From: Escherichia coli
GTDB lineage: Bacteria; Pseudomonadota; Gammaproteobacteria; Enterobacterales; Enterobacteriaceae
Length of the DNA stretch: 64,000 bases
Reading direction: 5' to 3' (one strand)
NCBI RefSeq assembly: GCF_024700885.2
Contig: NZ_CP117016.1
Below the pieces are notes generated by a model. That model was not told the origin of the DNA. It did not search any database and saw nothing but the letters and a program-made list of their open reading frames with translations. The position numbers and the translations under genes are program-made. This document shows positions 3,419 to 31,033 of the stretch, piece by piece (the stretch's first letter is position 1; each line of letters opens with the position of its first letter).

Positions 3419-3503
3419 GCCGAAGTGGCGAAATCGGTAGACGCAGTTGATTCAAAATCAACCGTAGAAATACGTGCCGGTTCGAGTCCGGCCTTCGGCA
3501 CCA
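3419..3503 (+). tRNA. leuX: tRNA-Leu (anticodon CAA)
   Basis: 85-nt sequence GCCGAAGTGG...TTCGAGTCCGGCCTTCGGCACCA with a CAA anticodon loop and long variable arm; genomic position after ahr. Confidence 0.9.
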
Positions 3504-11045: not shown

Positions 11046-11358
11046 ATGTCTTTAGATTCGCTGGCCTGCGGGCATGACAATGTCAAACAGTCAAAGATTG
11101 TGGCGTTGACGGTCAGTCTGGGTCGTAAAAACTTCCTGTTCTTCGGCTCTGACCATGGTGGTGAGCGGGGAGCGCTACTGTACAGCCTGATCGGGACGTG
11201 CAAACTGAATGACGTGGATCCAGAAAGCTACCTTCGCCATGTGCTTGGCGTCATAGCAGACTGGCCGGTCAACCGGGTCAGCGAACTGCTTCCGTGGCGT
11301 ATAGCACTGCCAGCTGAATAACACATCCCCGTCAATACGGCCCTCGCTGTACGCTTAC
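11046..11358 (+). mobile_element. IS66-family 3' remnant (TnpC C-terminus plus terminal repeat ending ...GTACGCTTAC)
   Basis: GRKNFLFFGSDHGGERGALLYSLIGTCKLNDVDPESYL; the same end sequence recurs at the other IS66 copies. Confidence 0.65.
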
Positions 11359-11434
11359 GATTAGTGGTGGTGTCTTCCAGTGCGAGGAGCAGCGGATGAG
11401 CCTCACATGCCCTTGCAGTGGCGGTAAATCCGGC

Positions 11435-11808
11435 TTAGGCAATGGCTTCCGGGGACACAGACGGGTTACGTATCAGGCGGTACGCACTTTCAACCTGAGC
11501 AGTGGAGTGGGATGATTTCACAATAGAAAGACCTGCATGCTGAGCGAGAGAAGAGGCCAGTGACACAAGGCGTCGTGTACGACGCGGATCACCGAGACGG
11601 GCATGTCCAAACTGCTCGTTATCCCATGAATAACAATCAGAAAGTACCATAACAGACCCGAAGAAAATGAAATATAAGAGAAGATCAACGGGTGAAGAAA
11701 AAGTTCAAAAAATCGCTGCCGGGGAGGAAGGAAACTACCGAATGGAAAGAGTCCCCCTAAAGCAGACTGACAGACATCACAAATCCCCGGGTGGGGATTT
11801 GTGTATAA
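11435..11808 (-). mobile_element. IS4-family (IS50-like) 5' remnant: transposase N-terminal fragment plus terminal inverted repeat
   Basis: ARLGDPRRTRRLV...AYRLIRNPSVSPEAI resembles the Tn5/IS50 transposase N-terminus; CTGTCTCTTATACACAAATCC end at ~11787-11808. Confidence 0.55.
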
Positions 11809-12113
11809 GAGACAGCCTGATAGGGGGGCGCATACATTATGCATACATACTCTCGGATATTGTAAAAGTTTTTTATATAATTACTAAGTTAGCTACCATC
11901 AATAAAATATTGACGTTAGCAGGTAACATCAACTTAATATATAAAAATATTCTTAGGTGAAAGTAACTGTTCAAGATAAAATAAAATCATCGCTTAAAAA
12001 GAAAAACACTCTCTTTGTTATATACGTACTCTGATAAATGCCAGATAAAACTATTAATTTTCATAAAAATATAATGCCATATATTATGATGCTATACATC
12101 TTACATATTCAAT

Positions 12114-12878
12114 TCAGATATATTTTAATTTTTCCGATAGTTCTTGACACGCATCAAGAACCAAAGTTGAATAATATTCAATTTTTTCTTTAGGTATCTG
12201 AATTTCCACGCCACTAATGCTGATAGCTGCAATTACTTCACGAGTCTGATTAAATACCGGAGCAGCAATACAATAAATTCCCGGTGAATCCTCTGCGTTA
12301 TCAAAAGCCCATCCACGTTCACGAATACGTGCAAATTCCTGTATTAGATCAGATTTACGAGTGATAGTTGTTTGCGTAAATCGTGGCAACGTTTCCTCAG
12401 GCAACAATGTGTCAATGACGTCTTGAGGTAACCACGCACATAAAGCCTTACCAACTCCAGAACTATGGAGTGGCAACTTCTTGCCTACCCACGTTCTGAT
12501 GCCAATTGGTTGTGTACTCTCGAGTTTCAAAATATAGATTGGAGCGACTTCATCGAGAATGCCCAGATGGCAGATAAGATCAGTACTGTCTCTCAGTTTT
12601 TCTAGAACCGGCCTCGCTACCTTACTGATGTCAAACTGCTCCAGAGATCGATTCCCCCATTCATACAATTTCAGCCCAAGAAAAAAACGCCCTCTTTCCT
12701 GACGTAACAGATGATGTTCGACAAGGGCATTCAGTAAAGATGATGTGCTGCTTTTTGGCAGATCCAGATCCTGCTGGATCTGGCTGAAGGTGGCGCCTGG
12801 AGAGCTAAAAAGGTAATTGCAGACTCTGACAGTTTTATCGAGTGCTGGTACCGATGTTCTGATGGTTTGATTATTCAT
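12114..12878 (-). CDS. IclR-family transcriptional regulator
   Basis: Family call from HTH-plus-ligand-domain organisation; start chosen at MNNQTIR (alternative upstream ATGs at 12920 and 12950). Confidence 0.7.
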   Translation of the reverse strand: MNNQTIRTSVPALDKTVRVCNYLFSSPGATFSQIQQDLDLPKSSTSSLLNALVEHHLLRQERGRFFLGLKLYEWGNRSLEQFDISKVARPVLEKLRDSTDLICHLGILDEVAPIYILKLESTQPIGIRTWVGKKLPLHSSGVGKALCAWLPQDVIDTLLPEETLPRFTQTTITRKSDLIQEFARIRERGWAFDNAEDSPGIYCIAAPVFNQTREVIAAISISGVEIQIPKEKIEYYSTLVLDACQELSEKLKYI

Positions 12879-13117
12879 AAAAAAATATGATTCCTTACAA
12901 TACTGAATAGTATACCCCATTCCCCCTTGATGCGCAGCGGCGCTTAGCACACATATTATACATGGCCTCCGCGTACCGGCATGCCTCTATAAACCTGACT
13001 TATTTCACACTTTTCATATCGCATTGTAAAAACATTTGACATGCAAAACCTGAATTTGATTCACTTTATTCAGCATAAAGAACTTATGTTCCATATACAG
13101 AACTTAGTGAGAGTGAT

Positions 13118-14017
13118 ATGTTGACAGCGTTTAGAGGTATTTTCCCGCCAGTTCCTACAATTGTTGACGCACAAGGGAAACTAGATAAGGCTGGCATGGC
13201 CCGGATGATCGACCATGTTTTAGAAAATGGTGCAAACGGGATGTTGATCCTTGGCAGTGGGGGAGAATTCTCACAATTTTCTTCCCAGCAACGAAAAGAG
13301 ATAGCTGCATTTTGCTTAAGTCATGTAGATGGCAAAGTGCCTGTTCTGGTGGGGATCGCCTGCGCGGGAACTGCAGAAACTATTGATTTAGGACATCATG
13401 CACAGGAGCACGGAGCTGATGGTGTGATGGTGGTGAATCCGTATTATGCAAAACTCAGCGATGATGCCCGGTTTATGCATTACAAATCTATTGCCGATTC
13501 ACTTAAAATTCCAGTGTTTCTCTATAACTTTCCTGATCTGACCGGTCAGGATATTGGGCTTGAGGTCATTACCCGGCTGGCCCGGGAAGTTCCAAATATC
13601 GTGGGTATCAAGGATACCATCGATAATATCAGCCATACCCGGGAAGTCATCAACCGTGTACATGCTTTTCGTCCGGATTTCATTATATTCAGCGGATATG
13701 ACGAATATATGCTGGATACCCTGTTACTGGGCGGCCATGGTGGTATTCCGGCGACATTCAATTTTGCTCCAAATATCACACGTGGTATTTATCAGGCCGT
13801 TATGGAAAATGATCTTGATAAAGCACGTTCTTTTCAGCAACAACTGGCAAAACTGTCTCCGTTATACACACTGGAGCAGCCTTTCTTTGGCGTGATAAAA
13901 ACTGCCATCAAACTGAGTGGACTGGACATATCTACTGCAGTTATGGCACCGGCTCTTCCGCTCAGTGATGACAAGGTCGCCAGGGTGAAAGCCATTCTGG
14001 AACACATTCACCAGTGA
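13118..14017 (+). CDS. DapA/DHDPS-family aldolase or dehydratase
   Basis: Family-level similarity (GSGGE, PVFLYNFP, KDT motifs) in the 299-aa translation. Confidence 0.7.
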   Translation: MLTAFRGIFPPVPTIVDAQGKLDKAGMARMIDHVLENGANGMLILGSGGEFSQFSSQQRKEIAAFCLSHVDGKVPVLVGIACAGTAETIDLGHHAQEHGADGVMVVNPYYAKLSDDARFMHYKSIADSLKIPVFLYNFPDLTGQDIGLEVITRLAREVPNIVGIKDTIDNISHTREVINRVHAFRPDFIIFSGYDEYMLDTLLLGGHGGIPATFNFAPNITRGIYQAVMENDLDKARSFQQQLAKLSPLYTLEQPFFGVIKTAIKLSGLDISTAVMAPALPLSDDKVARVKAILEHIHQ

Positions 14018-14033
14018 TTACGAGGATCGTAAG

Positions 14034-15551
14034 ATGAATAAGACTCCGATACTCAAATTAAATAACTCGGATGATGTCGTTATTGCCAGGACAGAACTTC
14101 CTGCCGGAAGCTGGCTGGAATCTGAAAGTATGGAAACACGTGACCTTATTCCGGCAGGGCACAAAATTGCTCTTCGGGATATTCCGGCCGGCAGTGCCGT
14201 TAAACGCTATGGACAGATAATCGGTTTTGCGACCCGTGACATCCGACAGGGCGAACATATTCATGTGCATAATCTCGGTATGGGGAGTTTTGAGCGTGAT
14301 TATGCCTGGGGGATAGACAGTCATCTTCCGGAAAAGGATGTTCATCAGGATACCTTTATGGGGATCCGCAGAAAAGACGGACGGGTGGCAACCCGTAATT
14401 ATATTGGTGTACTGAGTTCTGTAAACTGTAGTGCAACCGTAGTAAGGGCAATTGAAGATCATTTCCGTACCCGTGGTCTCAGTGATTACCCTAATGTGGA
14501 TGGTATTGTTGCCCTCCCACAAAGTTTTGGTTGTGCCTTTGGCTCTGACAGCGAAATGATGAAAGTCATGCGGAGGACAATGGCAGGCTATGCCACGCAC
14601 GCGAACTTTGCCGGGATCGTGATCGTGGGACTGGGATGTGAATCATTCCAGATTAAGGACATGATGAATGCCCACGGATTACATGAAAGTCCTGTATTCC
14701 ATACAATGACTATTCAGGAAAGCGGCGGAACACGTAACGCTATAGAAAAAGGTATTTCCTTCATTCTCGACATGCTCCCGGAAGCCAACAATGTCAAACG
14801 AGAACCAGTTCCGGTATCAGAAATCATTCTGGCTCTTGAGTGTGGCGGCTCTGATAGCTATTCAGGAATTTCCGCTAATCCGGCTCTCGGGTACGCAGTT
14901 GATCGCCTGGTTCGCCAGGGAGGAACGGCTATTCTGTCGGAAACATCGGAAATTTATGGAGCAGAACACCTTCTGACACGCCGTGCCATTAGTCGCGAAG
15001 TTGGCGAGAAACTAATCCGCAGAATTAAGTGGTGGGAAGAGTACTGTAAACGTACAGGGAGTGAAATGAATAACAACCCTTCTGCAGGTAATAAAGCGGG
15101 GGGACTGACCACTGTTCTGGAGAAATCGCTGGGAGGGATAGCAAAAGCTGGTACAACCAGCTTAATGGATGTATATGAATATGCTGAACCGGTGACAGCA
15201 AAAGGGCTTGTCTTTATGGATACCCCCGGATATGACCCGATGGCAGTAACCGGACAAATCGCCGGAGGAGCCAACCTGCTGTGTTTTACCACGGGCAGGG
15301 GATCTGCCTTTGGCGCAAAACCCACTCCTTGTCTGAAACTGTCAACCAATAACGCACTATGGCAACGGCAGCGCGACGACATGGATTTAAACTGTGGCAC
15401 GATTGTTGATGGCGAAGAAACAATAGAACAGGTTGGAGAACGTATTTATCAGAGAATTATTGAGCTGGCTTCAGGTCATCGTAGTCGAAGTGAAGAGCTG
15501 GGTTATGGGAGCCAGGAATTCGTTCCCTGGATAATGAACTCAATCATGTAA
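14034..15551 (+). CDS. UxaA/GarD-family sugar-acid dehydratase (SAF N-domain)
   Basis: 505-aa protein with altronate/galactarate dehydratase architecture. Confidence 0.7.
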   Translation: MNKTPILKLNNSDDVVIARTELPAGSWLESESMETRDLIPAGHKIALRDIPAGSAVKRYGQIIGFATRDIRQGEHIHVHNLGMGSFERDYAWGIDSHLPEKDVHQDTFMGIRRKDGRVATRNYIGVLSSVNCSATVVRAIEDHFRTRGLSDYPNVDGIVALPQSFGCAFGSDSEMMKVMRRTMAGYATHANFAGIVIVGLGCESFQIKDMMNAHGLHESPVFHTMTIQESGGTRNAIEKGISFILDMLPEANNVKREPVPVSEIILALECGGSDSYSGISANPALGYAVDRLVRQGGTAILSETSEIYGAEHLLTRRAISREVGEKLIRRIKWWEEYCKRTGSEMNNNPSAGNKAGGLTTVLEKSLGGIAKAGTTSLMDVYEYAEPVTAKGLVFMDTPGYDPMAVTGQIAGGANLLCFTTGRGSAFGAKPTPCLKLSTNNALWQRQRDDMDLNCGTIVDGEETIEQVGERIYQRIIELASGHRSRSEELGYGSQEFVPWIMNSIM

Positions 15552-15628
15552 TAACTACAGGCATAATTTGTTTTGCCCGGAAATAAGGAAACAAACTGAA
15601 TCCTGTTTTTGATAATTAGAGGTGAATA

Positions 15629-16636
15629 ATGGAACGTAAACCAGTACTGGGCATTTTTTTAGGTGAAGCTGCCGGCATTGGACCTGAACTGGTTGCCAAA
15701 GTCGTAGCTGATGGTACTGTCTATAAATATTGCAGACCTGTTCTGATTGGCGATGCCCGGGTACTTGCTCTTGGGCAAGAGATTGCTGGTGTGGATTTTC
15801 AGTGGGATGTCATCAGTGATCCCACTGAAGCTGACTGGACTACGGGAAATGTACCATTACTTGATTTGAAAAATTTTAATCCCGAAAAACTAACTATGGG
15901 CACCATTGACACTGCCTCAGGTTATGCAACAGGAGAATCACTGGTAACCTGTATGTCATTACTTAAATCAGGTAAAATTGACGGTTTTGTTTTCGCTCCA
16001 CTCAATAAAGAAGCGTTCAAGAAGGGGGGCTGGGATATTGAGGACGAACATTATCTCTTTGCTGAGCAGTTAGGATACTTGGATAAACCACGTGGCCTGT
16101 TGAATGTCCTTGATGACCTCTGGGTTTTTCGCGTGACGGGACATATTCCATTCAAAGATATTGCCAGCCATATTACACCAGAAAATGTCAGTCGTTCGAT
16201 TCAGTTATGCTACGATACATTAAAGATGGCGGGTTATAAATCACCTCGCATTGCAGTTGCGGCACTAAATCCTCATGCTGGTGATGGTGGTACATGTGGC
16301 ACTGAGGAAATAGATGTACTTATCCCTGTAATTGAAATGTTTCGGGAGAAAGGAATGGATATGTACGGTCCTGTCCCAGGGGACACCATCTTTATTCATG
16401 CATTTAATCATGAATATGATGCGATCGTTACCCTGTTCCATGATCAAGGACAAATTGCCACCAAGCTTCATTCCTTTGATGTGGGCATAACTGTAGCCGC
16501 CGGGCTTCCATTTGCTATAACAACACCGGAACATGGCACTGCATTTGATATTGCAGGTAAGGGGATCGCAAAAACAATGGCTACAGAGAGGGCTATTGCT
16601 GTTGCAGCCAGAATGGCATCAACAACACAGAAATAA
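15629..16636 (+). CDS. PdxA-family NAD-dependent dehydrogenase
   Basis: 335 aa; family-level match to 4-hydroxythreonine-4-phosphate dehydrogenase-like proteins. Confidence 0.65.
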   Translation: MERKPVLGIFLGEAAGIGPELVAKVVADGTVYKYCRPVLIGDARVLALGQEIAGVDFQWDVISDPTEADWTTGNVPLLDLKNFNPEKLTMGTIDTASGYATGESLVTCMSLLKSGKIDGFVFAPLNKEAFKKGGWDIEDEHYLFAEQLGYLDKPRGLLNVLDDLWVFRVTGHIPFKDIASHITPENVSRSIQLCYDTLKMAGYKSPRIAVAALNPHAGDGGTCGTEEIDVLIPVIEMFREKGMDMYGPVPGDTIFIHAFNHEYDAIVTLFHDQGQIATKLHSFDVGITVAAGLPFAITTPEHGTAFDIAGKGIAKTMATERAIAVAARMASTTQK

Positions 16637-16937
16637 TTTTTATAATAGCAGATAATAATACAATATATAACTTATATTGAGGGATATAGATATTATCTGC
16701 ATTAAAATGAGCTTTATAAAATGTCTTTATAAAGTTATCGCAAGTAATAGTGACTGTTTAAAATAGCAATAGACTATTTTATCTTCTAAGGAATACGATA
16801 CAGTCTATTGTTGGACTTATAGGAGCACTACTTCTCGGAACTATTCTTTGTTAGTAATTTCGCAATCAATATCCAGAAAGTAAAATCAAATTTTAACATA
16901 TTTAGTCTAATAGGTGTATTATTAAAGGAGAATAATT

Positions 16938-18203
16938 ATGTCCGCCTATGAGAAAGCAACAAATATAAGATGGAGAATATTTTTTGTACTTTTCCTTCTT
17001 GTTGTTGTCAGTATGATTGATCGAGCCTCAATATCTATAGCTATGCCTACTATTGCTAAAGATCTGGGATTAAGCGATACGATGCAAGGACTAATCTTGA
17101 GTGGTTTTTTCTGGACTTATGCATGCATGCAAATACCGGGTGGATTTTTAGCCGATAAATTTGGGGCAAGAATTATATTAGCATGCTCGGCAATACTTTG
17201 GGGAACTGCAGAAGCACTATTAGGGTTATGCCCAACAGGCTTTGCCTTACTTGCTGCTAATCTATTGCTTGGTGCAAGTGAAGCACCTGTATTTCCTTCT
17301 GGAGCCAGACTGAATGCAATCTGGCTTAACAAAAATGAAAGAGCTCGGGGAGCAACACTAATGGATGCAGGAGGGCCATTTGGTGCTGCAATTGGAGGAA
17401 TATTAGTAGCTGAAATGATGTTATATTTTACATCATGGCGGATTACCTTCATTATTTGTGGCATCGCAGCTATAACTCTGGGGCTAATCGCATACTGGGT
17501 TATTCGCGACAGGCCTGAAGATTCGCCAAGAGTGAATAACAAAGAACTGGGAATCATTAATCTCGATCGTGTTGTACAAGATACAGTAGAAGAAAATAAT
17601 GATCCCTTATTAAAAGTGATTCCACTACGTTCCTTCATCGGCATGCTTCTAGGCCGTTGTTCATGGGCTATGTGTTTCTTTGGTTTATTAACATGGGGGC
17701 CGGGATATCTTACACGAGCATTAAACCTGGATTTAAAAGCCGTTGGGTTTGCCACAATGATCGTTTTCTGTGCAGGTGGTTGTGGTAGCCTTTGTGGAGG
17801 ATGGCTCGCAGATAAACTTGCAAGTAAAGGGTTCGGACAGGCTAGATCATGTAAATTTCTATTAACAGTGTCAGGTATCTGCACGCTTATATCATTTGCT
17901 TTATTACCAAGTATTCCTGACGTAAAAACATCGATTATTTTACTGTCCTGCGCTGCATTTGTTTTAATGTGGGGAAGTATGTACTGGACATTCCCTCCTT
18001 TACTGGCACCCCGTTCTCGCGTAGCTACCGTCGGAGGAATGATGAATATGGCGGGAAGTGTTGGGGGCATTTGCATTCCTTTATTAGTAGGACTTATTTT
18101 AGATGTAACAAATTCATTCAATCCTGTACTCTATTTCTTTGCTGGTTGCGCAGTGATATTTATTTTAATGACAAACATTATTGATTTACGACACGTGCGA
18201 TAG
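16938..18203 (+). CDS. MFS transporter
   Basis: 421 aa, multi-pass hydrophobic; strong SD aaggag. Confidence 0.7.
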   Translation: MSAYEKATNIRWRIFFVLFLLVVVSMIDRASISIAMPTIAKDLGLSDTMQGLILSGFFWTYACMQIPGGFLADKFGARIILACSAILWGTAEALLGLCPTGFALLAANLLLGASEAPVFPSGARLNAIWLNKNERARGATLMDAGGPFGAAIGGILVAEMMLYFTSWRITFIICGIAAITLGLIAYWVIRDRPEDSPRVNNKELGIINLDRVVQDTVEENNDPLLKVIPLRSFIGMLLGRCSWAMCFFGLLTWGPGYLTRALNLDLKAVGFATMIVFCAGGCGSLCGGWLADKLASKGFGQARSCKFLLTVSGICTLISFALLPSIPDVKTSIILLSCAAFVLMWGSMYWTFPPLLAPRSRVATVGGMMNMAGSVGGICIPLLVGLILDVTNSFNPVLYFFAGCAVIFILMTNIIDLRHVR

Positions 18204-18212
18204 GAGATAAAT

Positions 18213-19169
18213 ATGAACATTAAGCCACTAAATTTATATGATGGTCCTGTAATCGATGCTCATCATCATTTCTGGGATCCGATAAAAAACGATCATCCTT
18301 GGTTGAAACCGGATGTTTTAATTCCTTTTAGATATGGTGATTATACAGCCATTAAGAGAAAATATTATCCAGAAGATTATTTTGCAGATGTAGGTGATAT
18401 TAATATTGTTGAAACATGTTATATGGAAACTGAATGGAATCCAACGGATCCATGTGGTGAAAGCGATTTCATTACATCAGTGGCAAAAATGACAGGTTAT
18501 CCAAATGCTGTTGTCGGTCAGGCTTGGTTAAACCATGATGATATAGATTCTGTATTAAAAATGCAGAGCTCATATAAGCTAATGCGAAGCATCAGACATA
18601 AACCTGAAGGCCCGGATAAACCAGAAGATGTTGGACAGTATACCACACTGATGAGTGATGAAAAATGGCGATATGGCTATTCGTTACTTTCGAAATATAA
18701 TTTAATGTTTGACCTTCAGACCCAGTGGTGGAACCTGCATGAAGCAGTAAAACTTGCAAATGATTTTCCAGATACAGTCATAATACTTAACCATACAGGA
18801 CTTCCTGCACAACGATCTGCTGAAGGGCTTGCCGGTTGGCATTCAGCAATGGCTTCTTTAGCTGAGTGTCAAAATGTTATGGTCAAAATTTCGGGAATAG
18901 GTTTAAAAGGAATCCCATGGACAATGGAGAATAATTTATGGATTATATCTGAAACCTTATCAATGTTTGGTCCTGACAGGGTAATGTTTGCAAGCAATTT
19001 CCCCGTAGATAGCCTTTGTGGCAGCTTTACTAATATATTCCATGGTTTTATGACAGTGTGTGAAATGAAAGGATATTCGCATGCCGCTCAGCGGAAGATG
19101 TTTCATGACAATTGTAAGAGAATTTATCGAACAATCCCACCACATAAATTGAAAGAAAAGCATAGCTAA
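18213..19169 (+). CDS. Amidohydrolase-2 family metal-dependent hydrolase (possible lactonase or lactone isomerase)
   Basis: 318 aa with N-terminal DAHHH motif typical of TIM-barrel amidohydrolases. Confidence 0.6.
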   Translation: MNIKPLNLYDGPVIDAHHHFWDPIKNDHPWLKPDVLIPFRYGDYTAIKRKYYPEDYFADVGDINIVETCYMETEWNPTDPCGESDFITSVAKMTGYPNAVVGQAWLNHDDIDSVLKMQSSYKLMRSIRHKPEGPDKPEDVGQYTTLMSDEKWRYGYSLLSKYNLMFDLQTQWWNLHEAVKLANDFPDTVIILNHTGLPAQRSAEGLAGWHSAMASLAECQNVMVKISGIGLKGIPWTMENNLWIISETLSMFGPDRVMFASNFPVDSLCGSFTNIFHGFMTVCEMKGYSHAAQRKMFHDNCKRIYRTIPPHKLKEKHS

Positions 19170-19676
19170 TAACCATACAACAAAACCTGATATTTATTGT
19201 GATATATAACGTATCAAACTTTATAACTTTTAAATATATGTTATGTTCATACTATGTCGAATGATAGTGCTCAAGTAGCACATCTAAAAAGACAATGCAA
19301 AACAGTAATAACCCCCCTTGCTAAAAAAAGGGGGGTATCATCCCTACACCGTCTCCAAAGGAGATGGAGATAGTTCCTATAAGGTCATAGCCTAAAAAAT
19401 ACCTATGACGGAATATCTCAACTTACTCACCACAATTAAAAAGAGACAAAATGACATGGAGTTTATGTGACCTCATCCCATTTTGCACAGCCTCCATTGT
19501 TCTGACATTGACGGCAGGTTGCCGCTTTATATCCGGCTTTATTGCAGCCATAAAGTTATGTGCCACTATATAATTCTCTGACTCACACTTCATTTACTGC
19601 ACGGGCTTCAAGCCCAAACCTCATGCAGGTTTAGTGAGTCCCAATCTTACCTGTCTTTATCATCTGTCACGAACGA

Positions 19677-21249
<1,573 letters not shown>

Positions 21250-25124: not shown

Positions 25125-25770
25125 AACGTCCGATAGCGATGATCTGAAGTGCACTATTTGCAGCACGCTCCCCACCCCGATTAAGTCGGTAACGGTTCAT
25201 TTTTTTAGAAGATACGGTAACCGAGTTGACACCACACAGCACCGCAAAACCTGATTCTATTCTTAGCCGTTGGGGATTATCTCCGGCAGTGATGAGCAAC
25301 TGCGAAGCGCTTTCGTATCCAACAGCATTACGTTTAATCAGTTCAGGTGCCAGTTCATCGACAATTGCCGCAATCATGACATCAAGGTCGGCGATTTCAT
25401 CATGTAACTCGAAATAGCGTCAGGCAAGTGATTTCAATGCAATGCGATAAACGTTGGTAACATTACGATATTCACTGGCACTAGGCTTCCAGGATCCCGG
25501 AGTCCTGATAAGTTGCATACGTGTCATATTTCTGAGTGGTTCGCGTAATTCATCCGGTGCAGAGATAATATAGGAATGGATAATCTGGAGAGCGACTCTG
25601 CAGGCTGATATTGCGGTTTTGCGGCAAGTTTTTGGCATCCGCTTCTACGCCAAATACCTGAAGTAGGAATGGATGCGTTAGCAGCATACATCCGGATCTG
25701 CGCGGGGAATAGCCGGAAACGGCTATCCCTACCACAATAGCTAACTTTGTAATAGTGCCCTTTTAGGCTC
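25125..25770 (-). pseudogene. Degenerate IS110-family transposase remnant
   Basis: Fragments in two frames with the IS110 C-terminal-domain pattern (FAVLCGVNSV..SSKKMNRYRLNRGGERAANSAL). Confidence 0.4.
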
Positions 25771-26800
25771 ATGTACTCTGACGTAATTCTATCTGGTAGT
25801 TGAATTGCACGATACGCGACTCTTCTGATTCATCATGATTATTATTCAATAGCCCAATCAGTAACTTACCCGTCTCTATCCCCATTTTTTTGTAGTCAAT
25901 ACGGATGGATGTCAAGGTTGGGTGTGTTTGATCGCAATTGTCTGAACCATCAAGACAAGCTACAGCGATATTTTCAGGAATTTTTAACAAACGCCGCTGG
26001 CACTCAAACATGATACCCAGCGCAATCTCTTCGTGGCTGCAAATCACAGCATCCAGCTCTGGTTGTCGCAGTAATATCTCGTTTAATGCGTAACGCCCCA
26101 ATTGCAGACTTGCGGCATCCGGCATGGTGATAACAAGATCAGAGTTCTGGTAATGGCTCAACATTGCTTTATGCCAGCCGTTCAGTTGCTGACGTTGCAG
26201 GCGGTTGTCCATATGCGCACCGATAAATCCGATATTCTTATAACCCTGTTCCAGCAGATGTTCGGTCAGTTTATGTGATGCTTCAAAAAATGCTGTTTCG
26301 ATGGTAATTTGAGCCGGACTGAAAGGGGAACCGACAACGTTAATGGTAGGTATATTTGTTTTCTCGAGTATCTGGTGAGTTTTATCAGCCAACTGAGAAC
26401 CAAAAATAACTAACGCCGCCGGGTTGCCTTGAAGAAGCGTCATCAGAATTTCAGCTTCTTTGAGCTGATTATACTCATGACACCCAAGCAGTAGCTGGAA
26501 TTCATTTTTATTAAGCACCTGCTGCAACGACTGCATAAAGCGGGAGCTGGCTTTATCTGTCAGGGAAGGAACCAGTACGGCGACTGTATCACTGTGACCA
26601 GATGCAAGGGCGCCAGCAGTTCTGTTGGGAATATAACCCAACTCTTCTACGGCCTGTTCTATCTTTTCCCTCAGCTTGTCAGATACCTGTTCCGGTGTTC
26701 TCAGCGCACGGGAAACGGTCATGGTTCCGACACCTGCAAAGTTAGCGACCTCCTGCAGCGTCACCCGTCCGGTACCACGGCGCTTACGTGTTTTTTCCAT
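25769..26800 (-). CDS. LacI-family transcriptional regulator
   Basis: N-terminal HTH VTLQEVANFAGVGTMTVSRAL plus periplasmic-binding-like domain. Confidence 0.8.
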   Translation of the reverse strand: MEKTRKRRGTGRVTLQEVANFAGVGTMTVSRALRTPEQVSDKLREKIEQAVEELGYIPNRTAGALASGHSDTVAVLVPSLTDKASSRFMQSLQQVLNKNEFQLLLGCHEYNQLKEAEILMTLLQGNPAALVIFGSQLADKTHQILEKTNIPTINVVGSPFSPAQITIETAFFEASHKLTEHLLEQGYKNIGFIGAHMDNRLQRQQLNGWHKAMLSHYQNSDLVITMPDAASLQLGRYALNEILLRQPELDAVICSHEEIALGIMFECQRRLLKIPENIAVACLDGSDNCDQTHPTLTSIRIDYKKMGIETGKLLIGLLNNNHDESEESRIVQFNYQIELRQST

Positions 26801-27070
26801 TTCGACTCCATGGATAATTACAACCAGCTGTTTTCATTACTTTTATTTCACCATTACTCTTTCCAGTTTTTGCCCACGGTAGCAAATATCCTGTTGCATT
26901 GTATATGCAGGAACCGAATATAGCCAAAGCATGGCGGCAGAGAAATGATAGCGCTATCACAAAGATTGATAGCGTTATCAGATAGCGCTATCAAATGCGA
27001 CAATCATCACATTAATTAATGCGTAAAATATCTACTCTCCTGTTAATTATCATCGGGAGTTATCAGTAGC

Positions 27071-27514
27071 ATGTTAAAAAATCTATTAAATACAGAGGTC
27101 GTTCAGGTCGTGGAACAGGCCAAAGACTGGCGGGAAGCCGTGGCGATTTCATGCCGGCCGTTGATTGAAAACGGTTCTATCGAACCGCGTTATGTTGATG
27201 CGATCTATCGCTCGCACGACACTATCGGTCCGTACTATGTGGTTGGCCCTGGTATTGCGATGCCTCATGCGCGCCCGGAAGAGGGAGCTAACAAGCTGTC
27301 ATTAGCACTGACCCTGATCCCTTCAGGTGTGAATTTTGATGCCGATGAAAACGATCCAGTGAAATTACTGATTGTGCTGGCTGCAACCGACAGTACCAGC
27401 CACATTGAAGCGATTTCTCAACTCGCCAAGTTATTCGATAACGAAAAAGACATACAGGCCATTTTGATGGCCAAAACGACGCAGGACATTTTGTCTGTTA
27501 TTGCGCGCTATTAA
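27071..27514 (+). CDS. PTS EIIA component (ascorbate/mannitol-type)
   Basis: 147 aa with GIAMPHAR phosphorylation-site motif. Confidence 0.75.
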   Translation: MLKNLLNTEVVQVVEQAKDWREAVAISCRPLIENGSIEPRYVDAIYRSHDTIGPYYVVGPGIAMPHARPEEGANKLSLALTLIPSGVNFDADENDPVKLLIVLAATDSTSHIEAISQLAKLFDNEKDIQAILMAKTTQDILSVIARY

Positions 27515-27529
27515 TCCAGAGGAACATTT

Positions 27530-27817
27530 ATGAAAATTACAGTGGTTTGCGGTAACGGCTTAGGCACCAGCCTGATGATGGAAATGAGCATTAAAAGCAT
27601 TTTGAAGGATTTGTCCGTCAGCGCTGATGTTGATCACGTCGACCTGGGCTCCGCGAAAGGGACGTCGAGTGATATCTATGTCGGCACCAAAGACATTGCC
27701 GAGCAGTTAGTCGCGCAGTCTGTCGCAGGCAAAATCGTCGCACTGGAAAATATGATTGATAAGAAAGCCATGAGAGAACGTTTATCCGTGGTATTAAACG
27801 AATTAGGCGCACTGTAA
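27530..27817 (+). CDS. PTS EIIB component
   Basis: 95 aa with N-terminal VVCGNGLGTS Cys motif. Confidence 0.75.
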   Translation: MKITVVCGNGLGTSLMMEMSIKSILKDLSVSADVDHVDLGSAKGTSSDIYVGTKDIAEQLVAQSVAGKIVALENMIDKKAMRERLSVVLNELGAL

Positions 27818-27829
27818 GCTGGGGGCGAT

Positions 27830-29086
27830 ATGGATTTCTTTCGTTTTTTGATGAGCGATGTACTTTCCGAACCCGCAGTGCTGGTCGGTTTAATCGCCCT
27901 GATTGGCCTGATTGCACAGAAAAAACCGGTAACCGAATGCATTAAAGGTACCGTCAAGACCATTATGGGGTTTGTGATTTTAGGCGCAGGGGCGGGTTTA
28001 GTTGTGTCGTCACTGGGTGACTTCGCAAACATTTTCCAGCATGCCTTTGGTATTCAGGGTGTAGTGCCGAACAATGAAGCCATTGTTTCCGTAGCGCAGA
28101 AAAGCTTCGGGAAAGAAATGGCGATGATTATGTTCTTTGCGATGGTTATCAACATTATGATTGCCCGTTTCACACCGTGGAAATTTATCTTCCTGACCGG
28201 TCATCACACGTTGTTTATGTCGATGATGGTAGCGGTAATTCTGGCAACAGCAGGCATGACCGGCATTACGCTTATAGCCGTTGGCTCTTTGGTTGTTGGC
28301 GTGGCAATGGTCTTTTTCCCGGCTATTGCGCATCCGTACATGAAGAAAGTGACCGGTTCTGATGACGTTGCCATCGGCCACTTCTCAACATTATCTTATG
28401 TATTGGCCGGTTTCATCGGCAGCAAGTTTGGTAATAAAGAGCACTCGACTGAAGACATGAATGTGCCGAAAAGTCTGCTGTTCTTGCGCGACACGCCGGT
28501 TGCTATCTCTTTTACCATGAGCATAATTTTCCTGGTGACGTGCCTGTTTGCGGGTGCAGATGCGGTGAAAGAGCTTAGCGGTGGTAAAAACTGGTTCATG
28601 TTCTCTATCATGCAATCCATTACCTTCGCAGCTGGCGTGTACATCATTCTGCAGGGTGTGCGCATGGTGATTGCGGAGATTGTCCCGGCATTCAAAGGTA
28701 TTTCAGACAAGCTGGTTCCGAATGCCAGACCTGCTCTCGATTGCCCGGTCGTCTTCCCTTACGCACCTAACGCTGTACTGGTTGGTTTCCTGAGTAGCTT
28801 TGCTGCAGGTTTAATCGGTATGTTCACGTTGTATCTGCTGAACATGATCGTGATTATTCCTGGTGTGGTGCCGCACTTCTTCGTAGGTGCAGCTGCAGGG
28901 GTATTCGGTAATGCAACGGGTGGACGTCGTGGTGCGATTTTGGGTGCCTTCGCTCAAGGCTTGCTTATTACCTTCCTGCCAGTATTCTTATTGCCGGTGC
29001 TGGGTGATATTGGTTTTGCTAACACCACCTTCAGTGATGCTGACTTTGGCGCACTGGGTATTTTGTTAGGGATTATCGTTCGCTAA
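27830..29086 (+). CDS. PTS EIIC permease (SgaT/UlaA family)
   Basis: 418 aa polytopic membrane protein immediately after IIA and IIB. Confidence 0.75.
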   Translation: MDFFRFLMSDVLSEPAVLVGLIALIGLIAQKKPVTECIKGTVKTIMGFVILGAGAGLVVSSLGDFANIFQHAFGIQGVVPNNEAIVSVAQKSFGKEMAMIMFFAMVINIMIARFTPWKFIFLTGHHTLFMSMMVAVILATAGMTGITLIAVGSLVVGVAMVFFPAIAHPYMKKVTGSDDVAIGHFSTLSYVLAGFIGSKFGNKEHSTEDMNVPKSLLFLRDTPVAISFTMSIIFLVTCLFAGADAVKELSGGKNWFMFSIMQSITFAAGVYIILQGVRMVIAEIVPAFKGISDKLVPNARPALDCPVVFPYAPNAVLVGFLSSFAAGLIGMFTLYLLNMIVIIPGVVPHFFVGAAAGVFGNATGGRRGAILGAFAQGLLITFLPVFLLPVLGDIGFANTTFSDADFGALGILLGIIVR

Positions 29087-29332
29087 TATTTTGATGACAT
29101 TAATATCCTCCAGGATTTCAGGAACGTGGAGGATATTAATTCCTCTTATTTTCTCCATTTTTCTTTCTTCCAGTCAGGACTGCATCCGATTAATCGTAAG
29201 CGCTCCGAGAAGTACGTAGCGTAAGGATTATTTTACAGCTGAGAAGTTTCAGTGCAGCAGTTCATGCACACGGTTCGACGGCTAGTCATTGATCTTCATA
29301 ATTACCTCGCGTAAAAAACGGGGTAAGGCCGC

Positions 29333-29524
29333 TCATCCCAGCGTCATCTCCACAGGTAATAATTCAACGCCAATGCCAGAAGAGTTCGTTAACGGAAGAC
29401 GCCGTGATATACGCCCTTTGATCAGCGAGAGCCTGAGCCATTTGAACAGAAGATTATCATTGATATCATGCTCCCGGGCAATACGGGCAACAGAACCCCT
29501 TGGTTGTAAAGCCAGTGTAACCAT
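29333..29524 (-). pseudogene. IS66-like OrfA fragment
   Basis: ARIAREHDINDNLLFKW motif. Confidence 0.4.
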
Positions 29525-30008
29525 TTGAAGTTTAAACTCATTTGAAAATGACCTGCGGGGTTCAGCTGATAATGTTTTTTGTTCTATAACAGGTGTCCAC
29601 TTGTTGAAAAGGTGGGTACCTATGTTACCAATACAGGCTTAATGGCTACATACAGCAGTCGGTTTACGCATACACTTTTATAGTGCACTCCGGCCTCATG
29701 AATATAACGGTGGATTACCGCCGAACGAATCGGAAAATAGATACTGGAAAAAATCTGAAATTGTGACCAGTTTTTGTTGACCACTACAAATAAATAAAAG
29801 AGTTGCAGTGCTTGCTCGGTAAGAAAACAATGGAAGTTGAGATCCTAAAAGAAGCTGTGGAGTACACCACTCTACAGTAGTTGCGCAAATTTGGAGTGGA
29901 CGATAATGTGATCGTCTATAAGGGCAACGCTATCATAGTATTGTCCTGGCGGGTAAAAAAACGCGCTTACATTAACGATAAGCGCGCCGCTGTTCAGGCC
30001 TTAAGTGG

Positions 30009-31022
30009 TTATTCAATTCCTGTGGTGACTGTAAAAGTGCGTGTTTGCTGCGGTGCAACCTGAATCAGCGTGCCATTACGTTGCGCGGCAAGATACCCCT
30101 CAGGCCGACAGGTTGCAGGTAATGCAAAGGCGGCTACCTGTTGCTCGCCGTTATAAAGGATCCAGCGTGTCACATAATTTAGTTCGGCACTGGAGAAACG
30201 AGTAACAAACGTAGTGCCATCGGGAGCGATCATGCGAAACTCTGGCTGATCTGTGTAAGCGTCCAGTTTGTCTGCAAAGAAGACTATTTCTGGATCATAA
30301 AATTCCGGTTGATTCAGCGTCGACAGAGAGGCTTCTCCCTGCATAATCCGTTGATTAAACGCCAGCCACTGAGCGGTGGGATTAACATGCGAAGGTACTG
30401 ATTCACGCAACCTTAATATTTCGTCCGGTATATTCTGGCTGAACGTAGCATTTGGTATATATGCATAATTCATGTGGCACATATATTGTAGTGGCATATC
30501 TACAGAAGCCAGATTGGTTACGGCCATCTTAATATCGAACAATGTAGAGGATTTGTGAAGGACCACTGTTGGCTGAGCCAGATAATGATGCCCGAACCCC
30601 ATTACATACTCGCAACGCCCGGTAAGGCGTAACATATCTCCCTCTAATTCCATCCATGCTTCATCCATCGCGGCACAGGCCATTTCACCGTGTAGCAGAT
30701 GAGTATCTTCCGCAGATGGGCAGCCATTAGCCAGCAAACCTGAATGAAAGGCAAAACAGCCATAGGTTTCTATCACCTCTGTCGCCGGTTTAGGCTGGCG
30801 AAACATATTGCACATGGTGAGACTGTGTCCATCAAATTGCGCATCCCAAATCATCTGCCCCATCCAGGGAAGAATAATTAAATGTCCACGACTGTTTGCA
30901 ATTTTAAGCCCCTCGACACCACTGTCATAGCGAAAAGACGTGACAGTAAAATCACTATTTTCCAGCAAGATACGAGGTTTTTCGCCAAAAAGCGCCCGCC
31001 ACAAATAAATACGCGTACTCAT
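30009..31022 (-). CDS. deoX: DeoX-like protein of the deoxyribose operon
   Basis: 337 aa; operon position after deoK and deoP as I recall for the Salmonella/ExPEC deoQKPX locus; SD aggag. Confidence 0.6.
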   Translation of the reverse strand: MSTRIYLWRALFGEKPRILLENSDFTVTSFRYDSGVEGLKIANSRGHLIILPWMGQMIWDAQFDGHSLTMCNMFRQPKPATEVIETYGCFAFHSGLLANGCPSAEDTHLLHGEMACAAMDEAWMELEGDMLRLTGRCEYVMGFGHHYLAQPTVVLHKSSTLFDIKMAVTNLASVDMPLQYMCHMNYAYIPNATFSQNIPDEILRLRESVPSHVNPTAQWLAFNQRIMQGEASLSTLNQPEFYDPEIVFFADKLDAYTDQPEFRMIAPDGTTFVTRFSSAELNYVTRWILYNGEQQVAAFALPATCRPEGYLAAQRNGTLIQVAPQQTRTFTVTTGIE

Positions 31023-31033
31023 AACGATTCTCC

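Follow-up and report, generated by a model that had tools for sequence, protein, structure and literature searches.

The stretch of Escherichia coli DNA that we analyzed (the window, 64,000 nucleotides) carries a cluster of six open reading frames, all intact and full length at the coordinates and with the families that an earlier sequence-only reading had assigned. A 100%-identical locus in RefSeq bore gene annotation in agreement, and NCBIfam, Pfam and PDB sequence searches backed the family assignments. The cluster sits in a leuX-tRNA island of E. coli, with IS remnants on either side. Its genes and features are as follows.

11112..11650, no strand: left boundary, fragments of IS66 and IS4/Tn5 transposases (pseudogenes in RefSeq; positions recalculated for the window)
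12114..12878, minus strand: IclR-family regulator, transcribed away from the enzyme genes (RefSeq start, 254 aa)
12879..13117, no strand: divergent intergenic region, presumed promoter-operator of regulator and operon (from the gene arrangement)
13118..14017, plus strand: DHDPS/NAL-family class I aldolase, YagE-like (2-keto-3-deoxy-acid aldolase; PDB alignment, NCBIfam)
14034..15551, plus strand: UxaA/GarD-superfamily acid-sugar dehydratase, single-chain SAF+GD_AH, AraD/IdnD-like clade (Pfam, Cys alignment)
15629..16636, plus strand: PdxA-family NAD-dependent metal dehydrogenase, "EDEH / GVTV / ITTPEHG" subfamily (NCBIfam, Pfam, PDB, alignment)
16150..16250, no strand: recombination breakpoint inside the pdxA-like gene, common E. 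coli allele against window allele (mismatch profile)
16637..16937, no strand: intergenic gap of 25% GC, differing from seven-gene relatives by an indel of gntP size (about 1.5 kb; comparison with L039)
16938..18203, plus strand: MFS transporter, anion:cation-symporter (DgoT/ACS) type (NCBIfam TIGR00893)
18213..19169, plus strand: Amidohydrolase_2 (COG3618-type) metal hydrolase, putative sugar(-acid) lactonase (Pfam PF04909, AF2 model)
19751..20761, plus strand: right boundary, an istA pseudogene of IS100 with IS66/IS110 elements beyond it (ORF list and RefSeq)

Each cluster protein scored under the curated cut-off of all known equivalogs in NCBIfam, and a literature search found no publication on the six-gene cluster, in keeping with the earlier description of an uncharacterized sugar-acid-type operon with an IclR regulator. 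The island is real, intact and unstudied, and its predicted role is most likely the degradation of a small sugar acid together with the corresponding lactone. Mechanical calling extends the IclR frame to 12950 (12114-12950, minus strand). The best NCBIfam matches of the regulator were BhcR (180 bits) and KdgR (144 bits), both under cut-off, and an IclR gene is also found with the cluster in Hafnia, Citrobacter, Salmonella, Desulfovibrio and one Firmicute. Promoter-like matches in 12879..13117 were not above chance, and an Rfam search of the same region gave no match.

The DHDPS-like protein aligned with E. coli YagE (structures 3n2x and 2v8z) at 295 bits and about 50% identity; YagE is a KDP/KDGal aldolase. 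From this alignment we read the Schiff-base residue Lys165 in GIKDT, Tyr136 and the GSGGE motif. The protein fell under the DapA, NanA and KdgD cut-offs of NCBIfam, and a KdgD-type identity was rejected because it reached only 112 bits against a cut-off of 374 and YagE was much closer. It is a predicted YagE-type 2-keto-3-deoxy-acid aldolase.

The dehydratase is composed of SAF, GD_AH_second and GD_AH_C domains (Pfam), and its four conserved Cys are all present (132, 167, 202 and 270). GarD was its sole match in NCBIfam and its sole full-length match in the PDB search (337 bits), but GarD equivalog identity was rejected at 404 bits, with 731 needed. Among its homologues of 62-66% identity are proteins (about 63-65%) whose Cys spacing is that of the D-arabinonate dehydratase (AraD) of Herbaspirillum huttiense, C785_RS13685, which is itself 67% identical to D-idonate dehydratase, both enzymes using (2S,3R) acids (PMC6336799). 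Judged by these likenesses, the cluster dehydratase is a member of the D-arabinonate/D-idonate dehydratase clade, the clade of (2S,3R) aldonates. It shares the superfamily and the four Cys with AraD and with Paracoccus IdnD, and the (2S,3R) substrate logic is also shared with the lactonase family, whereas the Cys1-Cys2 spacing is 35 residues in the cluster protein and 39 in AraD. The partners are also unlike those of the cluster: FAH-type dehydratases/hydrolases and an SDR for AraD, a KDGal kinase and aldolase for IdnD. Because the substrates of AraD and IdnD differ at 67% identity, their specificity is not transferable to the cluster dehydratase.

The MFS protein scored 240 bits against TIGR00893 (cut-off 395); anions are usually the cargo of ACS-type carriers. 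In the amidohydrolase, the HxH motif (H17, H19), H194 and D266 were invariant across 50 homologues, and this HxH/His/Asp catalytic framework is common to the L-fucono-1,5-lactonase BmulJ_04915 (COG3618, 4dlf). That lactonase was also the best structural match of the AF2 model (pLDDT 93; TM 0.75/0.83). Galactarolactone isomerase Atu3138 was more distant. Sequence identity to the lactonase was 20%, and the NCBIfam equivalog gave 79 bits against a cut-off of 400. The cluster protein represents a distinct COG3618 subfamily in which the partner is always an ACS-type MFS; homologous pairs occur in Pseudomonas and Leminorella (MFS 50% identical; 50%/61% identity for the Leminorella pair).

The PdxA-like protein matched PdxA and PdxA2 best in both NCBIfam and PDB, though all scores were under cut-off (284 vs 470, 257 vs 290 and, for PdxA2, 205 vs 583). 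In the alignment it retains the three metal-binding His and Lys279, and Tyr142, Thr288 and Ile297 replace Thr137, Asn283 and Arg292, which are common to PdxA and PdxA2. This Tyr/Thr/Ile signature persists down to about 55% identity. No kinase gene was found in the cluster, and a DUF1537 kinase gene was absent both in and beside it. The loss of these shared residues and the lack of a kinase gene suggest that a phospho-sugar acid, which the sequence-only reading had considered, is an unlikely substrate. However, fusion to a DUF1537 kinase is seen in a relative of 45% identity that shares the Thr/Val substitutions, so loss of Asn and Arg does not by itself exclude phosphorylated intermediates.

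The operon is mosaic. GC content is 46.1% over 13118-16636, 39.5% over 16938-19169 and 25% in the 301-bp gap at 16637-16937, which bears out the observation that the last two genes are richer in AT. The four-gene core (12114-16636) was present in 451 of 5426 complete E. coli genomes (about 8%) and 98-100% conserved, and the MFS and amidohydrolase segment (16637-19169) in only 55 of the 5426. The mosaic proposed earlier therefore stands, but not with its junction between the pdxA-like and MFS genes: window and common allele differ by 0-4 mismatches per 100 bp up to 16200 and by 24-25 per 100 bp from 16201, inside the pdxA-like gene, and cannot be aligned beyond its stop codon. The chimeric gene retains all subfamily-invariant residues. 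In the gap, gntP occupies the position in C. braakii L017, L033 and L039, and the flanks match L039 on both sides of gntP. Identity to the anaerobe versions was 68-79% for the PdxA-like, MFS and amidohydrolase proteins and 37-50% for the aldolase and dehydratase; on these values the first three share ancestry and move together.

The island also occurs in other gut bacteria. Its five functions are found again in Citrobacter, Salmonella, Hafnia, Desulfovibrio and Firmicutes; the proteins are 85-92% identical in Salmonella diarizonae and Citrobacter werkmanii/braakii, and the gene order is rearranged in Desulfovibrio and Firmicutes. The recurrence of the gene set in Salmonella, Citrobacter, Desulfovibrio and Firmicutes clearly makes the cluster more than a chance association. 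A genome-context comparison of the PdxA-like gene, which had been proposed as a check, showed that its linkage to dehydratase and aldolase is kept across phyla, even where the latter two are only 37-50% identical. The transporter varies between GntP and MFS, GntP standing in for MFS and amidohydrolase in Hafnia and Citrobacter. In a Negativicute-type cluster, a cyclase-family hydrolase occupies the amidohydrolase position, suggesting that the hydrolase step is conserved by non-homologous replacement. IclR-aldolase-dehydratase units without PdxA carry a GldA-like "glycolaldehyde reductase/glycerol dehydrogenase" in Serratia, a gene that also adjoins the Citrobacter cluster, and DgoK with a KDPGal-type aldolase in Salmonella. 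The PdxA-like gene has other settings as well. In Superficieibacter, an 82%-identical copy stands alone with GntP, and no dehydratase or aldolase lies nearby; in Clostridium, a 55%-identical copy accompanies a split transketolase and sugar isomerase-type genes. In Leminorella, the MFS-amidohydrolase pair and a PdxA-like gene adjoin DhaK/DhaL, near TIM and a DerI-like RpiB. MFS-amidohydrolase-PdxA operons without any dehydratase or aldolase exist. The homologous operon in P. putida adjoins an enolase-type acid-sugar dehydratase, GguC/AraD1 and an aldehyde dehydrogenase, a pentonate (L-lyxonate/Weimberg-type) cluster.

We compared the cluster with known systems. The yagEF/yjhHG genes of E. coli (Dahms-type D-xylonate; YagE/YjhH KDP aldolase, YagF/YjhG dehydratase) share with it the accessory location, an IclR regulator, a permease and a DHDPS-family aldolase coupled to an acid-sugar dehydratase, by which an acid is converted through a 2-keto-3-deoxy acid to pyruvate and a small aldehyde. 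They lack a PdxA-like gene and a lactonase, and YagF and YjhG are of the IlvD/Edd type, as opposed to UxaA/GarD. The galactarate/glucarate system (GarD, GarL, GarR, GarK, GarP) offers the nearest solved full-length dehydratase homologue and likewise an ACS-type permease, but the cluster aldolase is of class I DHDPS type, not GarL, and GarR and GarK homologues are absent. The PdxA2/DUF1537 tetronate pathways and ApnO also use a PdxA-family NAD/metal dehydrogenase in acid-sugar catabolism, ApnO (D-apionate oxidoisomerase) acting on an unphosphorylated acid (PMC12994016); the cluster, with dehydratase and aldolase as partners, has none of their DUF1537 kinase, RuBisCO-like protein or class II aldolase-type decarboxylase. 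Judged by the YagE, KdgD and GarD scores, the Cys spacing of the dehydratase relatives and the amidohydrolase model, the enzymes are closer to non-phosphorylative aldonate (Dahms-type) routes than to the aldarate/uronate-lactone routes first invoked. The earlier interpretation is thus partly supported: a sugar-acid route is retained, the PdxA-like gene is its non-canonical piece, and the underlying observation is confirmed.

We tentatively propose (probability about 0.4) that the cluster is a horizontally mobile accessory island for non-phosphorylative catabolism of a C5-C6 (2S,3R) aldonate or its lactone, with a PdxA-like branch. The compound, of the D-arabinonate, L-xylonate, D-idonate or L-galactonate type, would enter as free acid or lactone through the ACS-type permease (GntP importing the free acid in relatives), and the amidohydrolase would open the lactone. 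The iron-dependent dehydratase would then form the 2-keto-3-deoxy acid, which the aldolase would cleave to pyruvate and glycolaldehyde or glyceraldehyde. At the second exit, the PdxA-like enzyme would use NAD+ and bound metal to oxidize the C3 hydroxyl of the unphosphorylated acid, and the resulting beta-keto acid would lose CO2. The product would be a ketose shorter by one carbon (erythrulose, a pentulose or dihydroxyacetone) usable by host kinases, and the NADH could reduce the aldehyde from the aldolase step. The IclR protein would control the operon.

We infer the substrate, the lactonase activity and the PdxA-like reaction, including its place as a branch or upstream of the dehydratase, from several lines. 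The likeness of the aldolase to YagE with Lys and Tyr kept, the four Cys of the dehydratase and its likeness to (2S,3R)-acid dehydratases, and the lactonase-like amidohydrolase model all suggest such a route, as do the GldA-like or DgoK/KDPGal-type aldolase neighbors in PdxA-less relatives and the conserved hydrolase step. The PdxA-GntP pair of Superficieibacter forms a stand-alone module, and the residues kept and lost in the PdxA-like protein suggest an unphosphorylated substrate. Decarboxylation is suggested by analogy with PdxA, PdxA2 and TphB, the characterized decarboxylating members, which are beta-hydroxy-acid oxidative decarboxylases. The Leminorella and Clostridium contexts suggest a ketose product. 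Against this proposal, it would be unusual for an operon to encode a branch that draws on the acid used by its dehydratase, and the linkage of the PdxA-like gene to diverged dehydratases and aldolases across phyla argues for a single linear pathway. An ACS-type MFS would be a better match for a lactone bearing a carboxylate than for a neutral one, identity to the PdxA-like proteins of Leminorella and Pseudomonas is low (about 39-40%), the kinase-fused relative carries the same substitutions, and E. coli is not known to have an erythrulose pathway.

A linear pathway, somewhat unlikely in our judgment, would place all five functions in one line and so account for the linkage across phyla. A mono-anionic carboxy-lactone would be imported by the MFS and opened by the amidohydrolase to a dicarboxylic beta-hydroxy acid; the PdxA-like enzyme would remove one carboxyl through transient C3 oxidation, and a (2S,3R) aldonate such as L-xylonate would pass through dehydratase and aldolase to pyruvate and glycolaldehyde. 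Tartrate dehydrogenase/decarboxylase, of the isocitrate/isopropylmalate dehydrogenase superfamily, performs such an NAD-dependent, net redox-neutral decarboxylation of a hydroxy-dicarboxylate. Its action on meso-tartrate is a mechanistic precedent, but from another family, and none is known from the PdxA family itself. The carrier and hydrolase types suit an anionic lactone, LigI of this hydrolase family opens a carboxylated lactone, the P. putida operon adjoins a pentonate cluster, and neighbors resemble glycolaldehyde reductase. Candidate substrates are an aldarolactone or the ascorbate breakdown products 2-carboxy-L-xylono/lyxonolactone; ascorbate chemistry gives exactly such compounds, two epimeric lactones with a single ionizable carboxylate that slowly decay to L-xylonate and L-lyxonate (PMC11066805). 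However, the GntP that replaces MFS and amidohydrolase in Hafnia and Citrobacter is known for monocarboxylates, an invariant acidic Glu-Asp-Glu beside the substrate His looks ill-suited to a second carboxylate, and the Superficieibacter and Leminorella contexts fit poorly.

An alternative aldarate route, toward which the sequence-only reading leaned, is improbable. The substrate of the GarD-like dehydratase would be an aldarate, but neither galactarate nor glucarate; the amidohydrolase would open the aldarolactone, the aldolase would replace GarL to give pyruvate and tartronate semialdehyde, and the PdxA-like enzyme would replace GarR, reducing or decarboxylating the latter. GarD being the only match of the dehydratase agrees with this, tartronate semialdehyde would be an exact analogue of the PdxA/PdxA2 3-oxo intermediates, and the bulky Tyr142 and Ile297 would fit a C3 substrate. 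But the GarD score is far under cut-off, the aldolase is nearest YagE and not KdgD or GarL, relatives use GntP transporters, and related clusters, one of them also having the PdxA-like gene, carry GldA-like reductases for neutral aldehydes. Moreover, the MFS-amidohydrolase-PdxA operons lacking dehydratase and aldolase suggest that the PdxA-like step directly follows the hydrolase, not the aldolase.

It is very improbable that the cluster is a decaying, non-functional remnant of the IS-rich island, as the flanking IS fragments and pseudogenes, the gntP-sized indel and the recombination junction inside a gene might suggest: the six frames and their catalytic residues are intact, the core is conserved in 451 genomes, and the chimeric gene keeps its invariant residues. 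Metagenome contig L035 does carry disrupted copies, so decay is recognizable where present. It is scarcely credible that the PdxA-like protein is a genuine PdxA/PdxA2 with a phosphorylated four-carbon acid as substrate, serving vitamin B6 synthesis or a tetronate pathway of the DUF1537 type, and that its gene lies next to sugar-acid genes only fortuitously, since, despite the top matches to PdxA and PdxA2, every score is under cut-off, Thr137, Asn283 and Arg292 are substituted, the DUF1537 kinase gene is absent, and the linkage to aldolase and dehydratase is kept across phyla.

The six open reading frames of the cluster (12114-19169) lie exactly where the sequence-only reading had placed them, and its family labels were right: RefSeq lists an IclR family regulator, a dihydrodipicolinate synthase family protein, a UxaA family hydrolase, a PdxA family dehydrogenase, an MFS transporter and an amidohydrolase family protein. 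Every protein scored below the NCBIfam cut-off of each functionally defined family that it resembles, so that specific functions are not transferable to the cluster proteins. The stretch 11500-19800 is 100% identical to chromosomal loci in several complete E. coli genomes. Rfam gave no matches across this stretch, promoter-like sites occurred at chance (24 found, 23.3 expected), and no terminator was found between the pdxA-like and MFS genes. A full-text literature search found no publication on the cluster; the "pdxA-like cluster" described in E. coli BEN2908 is a different locus, with PdxA2 and DUF1537.

Features in and around the cluster
3419-3503: tRNA-Leu(CAA) gene (leuX), with the cluster about 8.6 kb downstream
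3500-25700: island after leuX, with a resolvase-type recombinase, an HTH protein, fragments of an integrase and of a phosphoethanolamine transferase, and IS fragments (IS66, IS4, IS100, ISEc22, ISEc45/IS110)
12114-16636: core of the cluster, from the IclR regulator gene to the PdxA-like gene
16637-16937: gap between the PdxA-like and MFS genes
16637-19169: MFS-amidohydrolase segment, gap included
17117-18121, minus strand: 334-aa antisense ORF wholly within the MFS gene
25769-33298: second accessory sugar locus, downstream of the cluster; in order, LacI regulator, ascorbate-type PTS IIA/IIB/IIC, aldose 1-epimerase family protein, FucP-like permease, ribokinase, DeoR regulator

The cluster lies within the island, flanked by IS66 and IS4 fragments on the left and by IS100, IS66 and IS110 elements on the right, and is one cargo module of the leuX island. 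The antisense ORF has no RefSeq annotation or further support and is most likely a mechanical ORF.

The dehydratase has the SAF + GD_AH architecture (PF08666, PF04295 and PF20629, precomputed on the 100%-identical protein P0121 and its orthologues). Its C132, C167, C202 and C270 align with cysteines of GarD and are kept in 121 of 121 aligned homologues; by its domains and these four cysteines it belongs to the UxaA/GarD superfamily (COG2721). GarD is also its nearest solved relative (337 bits), and assignment as a GarD equivalog was excluded by the score on TIGR03248 (403.9 bits, cut-off 730.85). In the D-arabinonate dehydratase C785_RS13685 of Herbaspirillum huttiense (AraD), Cys134, Cys173, Cys208 and Cys276 are the proposed iron ligands (PMC6336799). 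We judged the relation to this enzyme through proxies, namely the published cysteine numbering and a C-terminal primer match. Within a large proteobacterial group at 62-66% identity to the dehydratase, nine homologues (63-65%) have the exact published AraD cysteine spacing of 39/35/68, compared with 35/35/68 in the window enzyme, and one protein has the same C-terminal peptide as the Acidovorax enzyme, by a primer-derived match. PGAP names one record "D-arabinonate dehydratase" and others UxaA family hydrolase. These sequence comparisons suggest that the dehydratase likely belongs to the clade of AraD and the D-idonate dehydratase (IdnD). The two enzymes are 67% identical to each other yet use different substrates (Watanabe et al., PMC6336799), so clade membership does not settle specificity; the trait common to the clade is (2S,3R) stereochemistry at C2-C3.

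The aldolase matched E. coli YagE over its full length (295 bits, about 50% identity; next PDB match 150 bits) and, aligned to it, shows the class I motifs of the DHDPS/NAL family: the Schiff-base K165 (GIKDT), the catalytic Y136 (LYNFP) and the carboxylate-binding G46-E50 (GSGGE). YagE is a 2-keto-3-deoxy-pentonate/galactonate aldolase. The DapA model TIGR00674 gave 181.8 bits (cut-off 206.15) and the KdgD model TIGR03249 gave 112.3 bits (cut-off 373.95), the latter excluding a KdgD-type assignment. The likeness to YagE thus points to aldol cleavage rather than to the KdgD-type dehydration/decarboxylation of the aldarate pathway. What the sequence-only reading had observed was confirmed, and its interpretation held in part.

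PF04166 was found on all PdxA-like homologues, and the metal-binding H172, H216 and H271 (His166, His211 and His266 of E. coli PdxA) are invariant; equivalents of E. coli PdxA His136 and Lys274 are also kept. The protein reached neither the cut-offs of three PdxA models (284, 257 and 226 bits; cut-offs 470, 290 and 378) nor that of the PdxA2 model (205 bits; cut-off 583). The motifs PGHT, GVN(I/V)T and (I/V)RTS, shared by E. coli PdxA, 4jqp and the two Salmonella PdxA2 structures, correspond to EDEHY, GITV and AITT in the PdxA-like protein. Thr137, Asn283 and Arg292 of PdxA, which from the UniProt annotation we take to be its substrate-binding residues, become Tyr142, Thr288 and Ile297, a direct contrast with the three phosphate-substrate enzymes. 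Relatives of between 100% and about 55% identity show the EDEHY/GITV/AITT-type signature without exception, in any gene context. Residue 142 varies (Tyr, Ala, Val, Gln, Glu, Lys) with no correlation to gene context and so gives no clue to specificity. Among 1.84 billion cluster representatives searched, the PdxA-like group at 50% identity or more collapsed to essentially one cluster, the best representative being 50% identical. The Asn/Arg pair was kept in only 44 of 156 aligned sequences (the 150 nearest 50%-identity representatives, the window protein and five references), placing the PdxA-like protein in a broad, largely unstudied class, which as far as we found is uncharacterised. No kinase gene, DUF1537 (SBD_N+NBD_C) kinases included, was found at the window cluster or at any orthologous locus. 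A caveat is a 45%-identical relative with Thr/Val at the Asn/Arg positions that is fused to a DUF1537 acid-sugar kinase; this fusion recalls the apionate pathway, in which oxidation comes before phosphorylation (PMC12994016).

The amidohydrolase matched PF04909 (E=2e-36), and its HxH (H17/H19), H194 and D266 framework is invariant in 50 homologues; it belongs to the Amidohydrolase_2/COG3618 lactonase group. Its AlphaFold model (pLDDT 93) has a (beta/alpha)8 fold whose closest structure is the L-fucono-1,5-lactonase 4dlf (TM 0.75/0.83). Foldseek ranked 6uvz (a Bifidobacterium amidohydrolase) and the LigI lactone hydrolases next, with decarboxylases and galactarolactone isomerase lower, and this ranking excluded a decarboxylase-class assignment. 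The score on the L-fucono-1,5-lactonase equivalog NF052480 was 79 bits (cut-off 400). The 20% identity to 4dlf sets the protein in a subfamily of its own, made up of probable lactonases. For the MFS protein, the best-scoring family was ACS (anion:cation symporter) TIGR00893, at 239.5 bits with a cut-off of 395.

The last two genes had been described as markedly more AT-rich than the enzyme genes before them, and the base composition bears this out: GC is 46.1% in the three enzyme genes, 39.5% in the MFS and amidohydrolase genes and 25% in the 301-bp gap between the two groups. Of 5426 complete E. coli genomes, 451 carried the core, in each case as a single chromosomal copy, at about 98% identity in 394 and at least 99% in 56, whereas the MFS-amidohydrolase segment was present in only 55. 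The common allele has a different ACS-type MFS (29% identity) and lacks the amidohydrolase. The two alleles are near-identical up to about 16200; from there on, through the final third of the pdxA-like gene, they show 24-25 differences per 100 bp, and past its stop codon they no longer align. This jump in divergence at about 16200 marks the window allele as a recombinant with its junction inside the pdxA-like gene; the chimeric protein retains every subfamily-invariant residue. In a seven-gene relative, the sequences bordering gntP align to the two ends of the AT-rich gap, where 75 bp (16720-16794) take the place of about 1.5 kb (the gntP-bearing stretch, L039 3860-5347); by this alignment the gap is a scar. 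One E. coli genome, Rb-50 (NZ_AP025682), carries a version with GntP, MFS and amidohydrolase at 87% identity. In L030, a common-allele locus, the cluster runs directly up to a truncated PTS IIC gene (L030 10047-10946), and no IS elements separate the two.

Related loci and their gene content
Salmonella diarizonae, C. werkmanii: all six genes, 85-92% identity
C. braakii and two metagenome contigs: seven genes, a GntP permease lying between PdxA-like and MFS
Hafnia alvei: core and GntP only
C. youngae / C. portucalensis: aldolase, dehydratase, PdxA-like, GntP, IclR and a divergent GldA-like dehydrogenase
Desulfovibrio and a Firmicute: five functions in another order, with a split dehydratase (SAF and large subunit)
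Negativicute-type contig: dehydratase, MFS, cyclase-family hydrolase, PdxA-like, aldolase

At the Desulfovibrio and Firmicute loci, the PdxA-like, MFS and amidohydrolase proteins are 68-79% identical to those of E. coli, but the aldolase only 48-50% and the dehydratase 37-38%; a non-homologous enzyme fills the hydrolase step in the Negativicute-type contig. Without the PdxA-like gene, the IclR-aldolase-dehydratase-MFS unit is also seen in Serratia (with a GldA-like "glycolaldehyde reductase/glycerol dehydrogenase") and Salmonella (with DgoK and a KDPGal-type aldolase). The PdxA-like gene is likewise found without the aldolase-dehydratase unit, in Superficieibacter with GntP as sole partner (82% identity) and in Megasphaera and Veillonellaceae with an MFS, a cyclase and a sigma-54 regulator (61-64% identity). 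The pair of MFS and amidohydrolase genes (50% and 59-61% identity) has a wide distribution, with copies in Pseudomonas, Bordetella, Bosea and Leminorella. P. putida (L053 6683-16789) has an overlapping MFS-amidohydrolase_2-PdxA-like operon with an adjoining OprD porin; its neighbours (MFS, enolase-superfamily acid-sugar dehydratase, GguC/AraD1 and aldehyde dehydrogenase) form a pentonate Weimberg/L-lyxonate-type set. In Leminorella, the pair stands beside a PdxA-like gene followed by DhaK/DhaL, with an AP_endonuc_2 isomerase-type gene, TIM and a DerI-like RpiB near. The PdxA-like proteins of these two loci are only about 39-40% identical to that of E. coli and have the same Thr/Ile substitutions. 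Taken together, it is clear that the same five functions were rebuilt from non-orthologous parts across phyla, by modular pathway assembly with exchange of transporters.

The cluster contains candidate parts of a Dahms-type pathway (dehydratase, aldolase and a lactonase-like gene), and no sugar dehydrogenase gene is found at it, suggesting entry at the acid or lactone level. A (2S,3R) aldonate would enter as such or in lactone form, in which case the amidohydrolase would open the ring; the dehydratase would convert the aldonate to a 2-keto-3-deoxy acid, and the aldolase would cleave this to pyruvate and a small neutral aldehyde. This proposed non-phosphorylative route is the well-supported part of the scheme. 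The PdxA-like enzyme may use NAD+ to oxidise the free acid at its C3-hydroxyl, after which beta-decarboxylation would leave a ketose with one carbon less. Such oxidation and beta-decarboxylation is the chemistry of characterised decarboxylating PdxA-family members. We favour the whole picture, PdxA-like step included, at a probability of about 0.4. A non-phosphorylative acid-sugar pathway with a PdxA-class enzyme and a distinct lactonase subfamily contradicts no established principle.

The main rival, which we think unlikely but serious, places the PdxA-like enzyme upstream of the dehydratase, where it would trim a carboxylated precursor to the aldonate. It accounts better for the persistent linkage of the five functions, and it is consistent with the anion-type MFS, with the Pseudomonas neighbourhood and with 2-carboxy-L-pentonolactones derived from ascorbate, which decay to L-xylonate and L-lyxonate (PMC11066805). 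We nevertheless prefer the ketose role on the family chemistry, the stand-alone transporter-(hydrolase)-PdxA-like modules and the ketose contexts in Leminorella and Clostridium. A more speculative and quite doubtful proposal is that the island serves to salvage, in the gut, products of non-enzymatic vitamin C breakdown, in the chain MFS, hydrolase, PdxA-family enzyme, dehydratase and aldolase. The ACS-type MFS would import mono-anionic 2-carboxy-L-xylono/lyxonolactones, and the COG3618 hydrolase would open them to 2-carboxy-L-pentonate. A PdxA-family enzyme of a new kind would shorten this by beta-oxidative decarboxylation, either to L-xylonate or all the way to L-erythrulose, and the AraD/IdnD-clade dehydratase and YagE-like aldolase would take L-xylonate to pyruvate and glycolaldehyde. 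If true, this would give a first function to the large PdxA-like class without Asn283/Arg292 and define a microbial sink for ascorbate degradation products.

An aldarate pathway, towards which the sequence-only reading leaned, is improbable. That the cluster is a decaying remnant is very improbable, with the invariant residues intact in a chimeric protein, and a canonical phospho-substrate role for the PdxA-like enzyme, with the Asn/Arg pair replaced and no DUF1537 kinase gene in or beside the cluster, is the least credible. D-apionate was considered as substrate from the precedent of a lactonase and a PdxA-family oxidoisomerase, and was rejected on the formaldehyde release expected on dehydration and aldol cleavage and on the lack of a kinase or RuBisCO-like protein. 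A role of the PdxA-like enzyme in handling tartronate semialdehyde was downgraded, as stand-alone MFS-hydrolase-PdxA operons and neutral-aldehyde reductase neighbours exist.

The core operon occurs in about 8% of complete E. coli genomes, ST131-type clinical isolates included, and related versions are found in Salmonella, Citrobacter, Hafnia, Desulfovibrio and gut Firmicutes, which makes it a recurrent niche trait of gut bacteria. The cluster pairs a well-understood dehydratase and aldolase with a PdxA-family enzyme of the class without the Asn/Arg pair; solving the operon would open a way into that class and into a possible new exit from acid-sugar or lactone metabolism. For pathway discovery in gut bacteria, the cluster offers a target that is both conserved and tractable.

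Several side observations concern the related loci. In Megasphaera and Veillonellaceae (L018 4254-10999; L036, L040, L042, L043), the order is ACS-type MFS, PF04199 cyclase-family hydrolase and PdxA-like, with a sigma-54 PrpR/PrdR-like activator and a variant "putative NPN-dependent ornithine cyclodeaminase" (611 bits, above the cut-off) upstream, which suggests a possible amino-acid or lactam-related use of the PdxA subfamily. TctCBA and a LysR regulator lie upstream at the P. putida locus L053. In the metagenome copy L035 (4470-7900), otherwise 98-100% identical, the IclR and dehydratase genes are each in two pieces and the aldolase match is shortened, reflecting either decay or sequencing error. 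A PdxA-like gene with 55% identity lies in the Clostridium swellfunianum locus L009 (7850-20535). Its cluster also encodes a sigma-54 activator and TctCBA, along with three sugar isomerase-type proteins (AP_endonuc_2), a member of the Asp/Glu racemase family, a split transketolase and a D-2-hydroxyacid dehydrogenase, and citrate lyase subunits adjoin it; the set has the look of a further uncharacterised pathway for acid sugars. Natural DUF1537 kinase/PdxA-family fusions include P0370 (771 aa) and others of about 750-790 aa (P0404, P0410, P0454 and more); P0370 is of the Thr/Val (non-Asn/Arg) type and P0404 and P0410 are of the canonical Asn/Arg type, and phosphorylation may follow oxidation in one class and precede it in the other.
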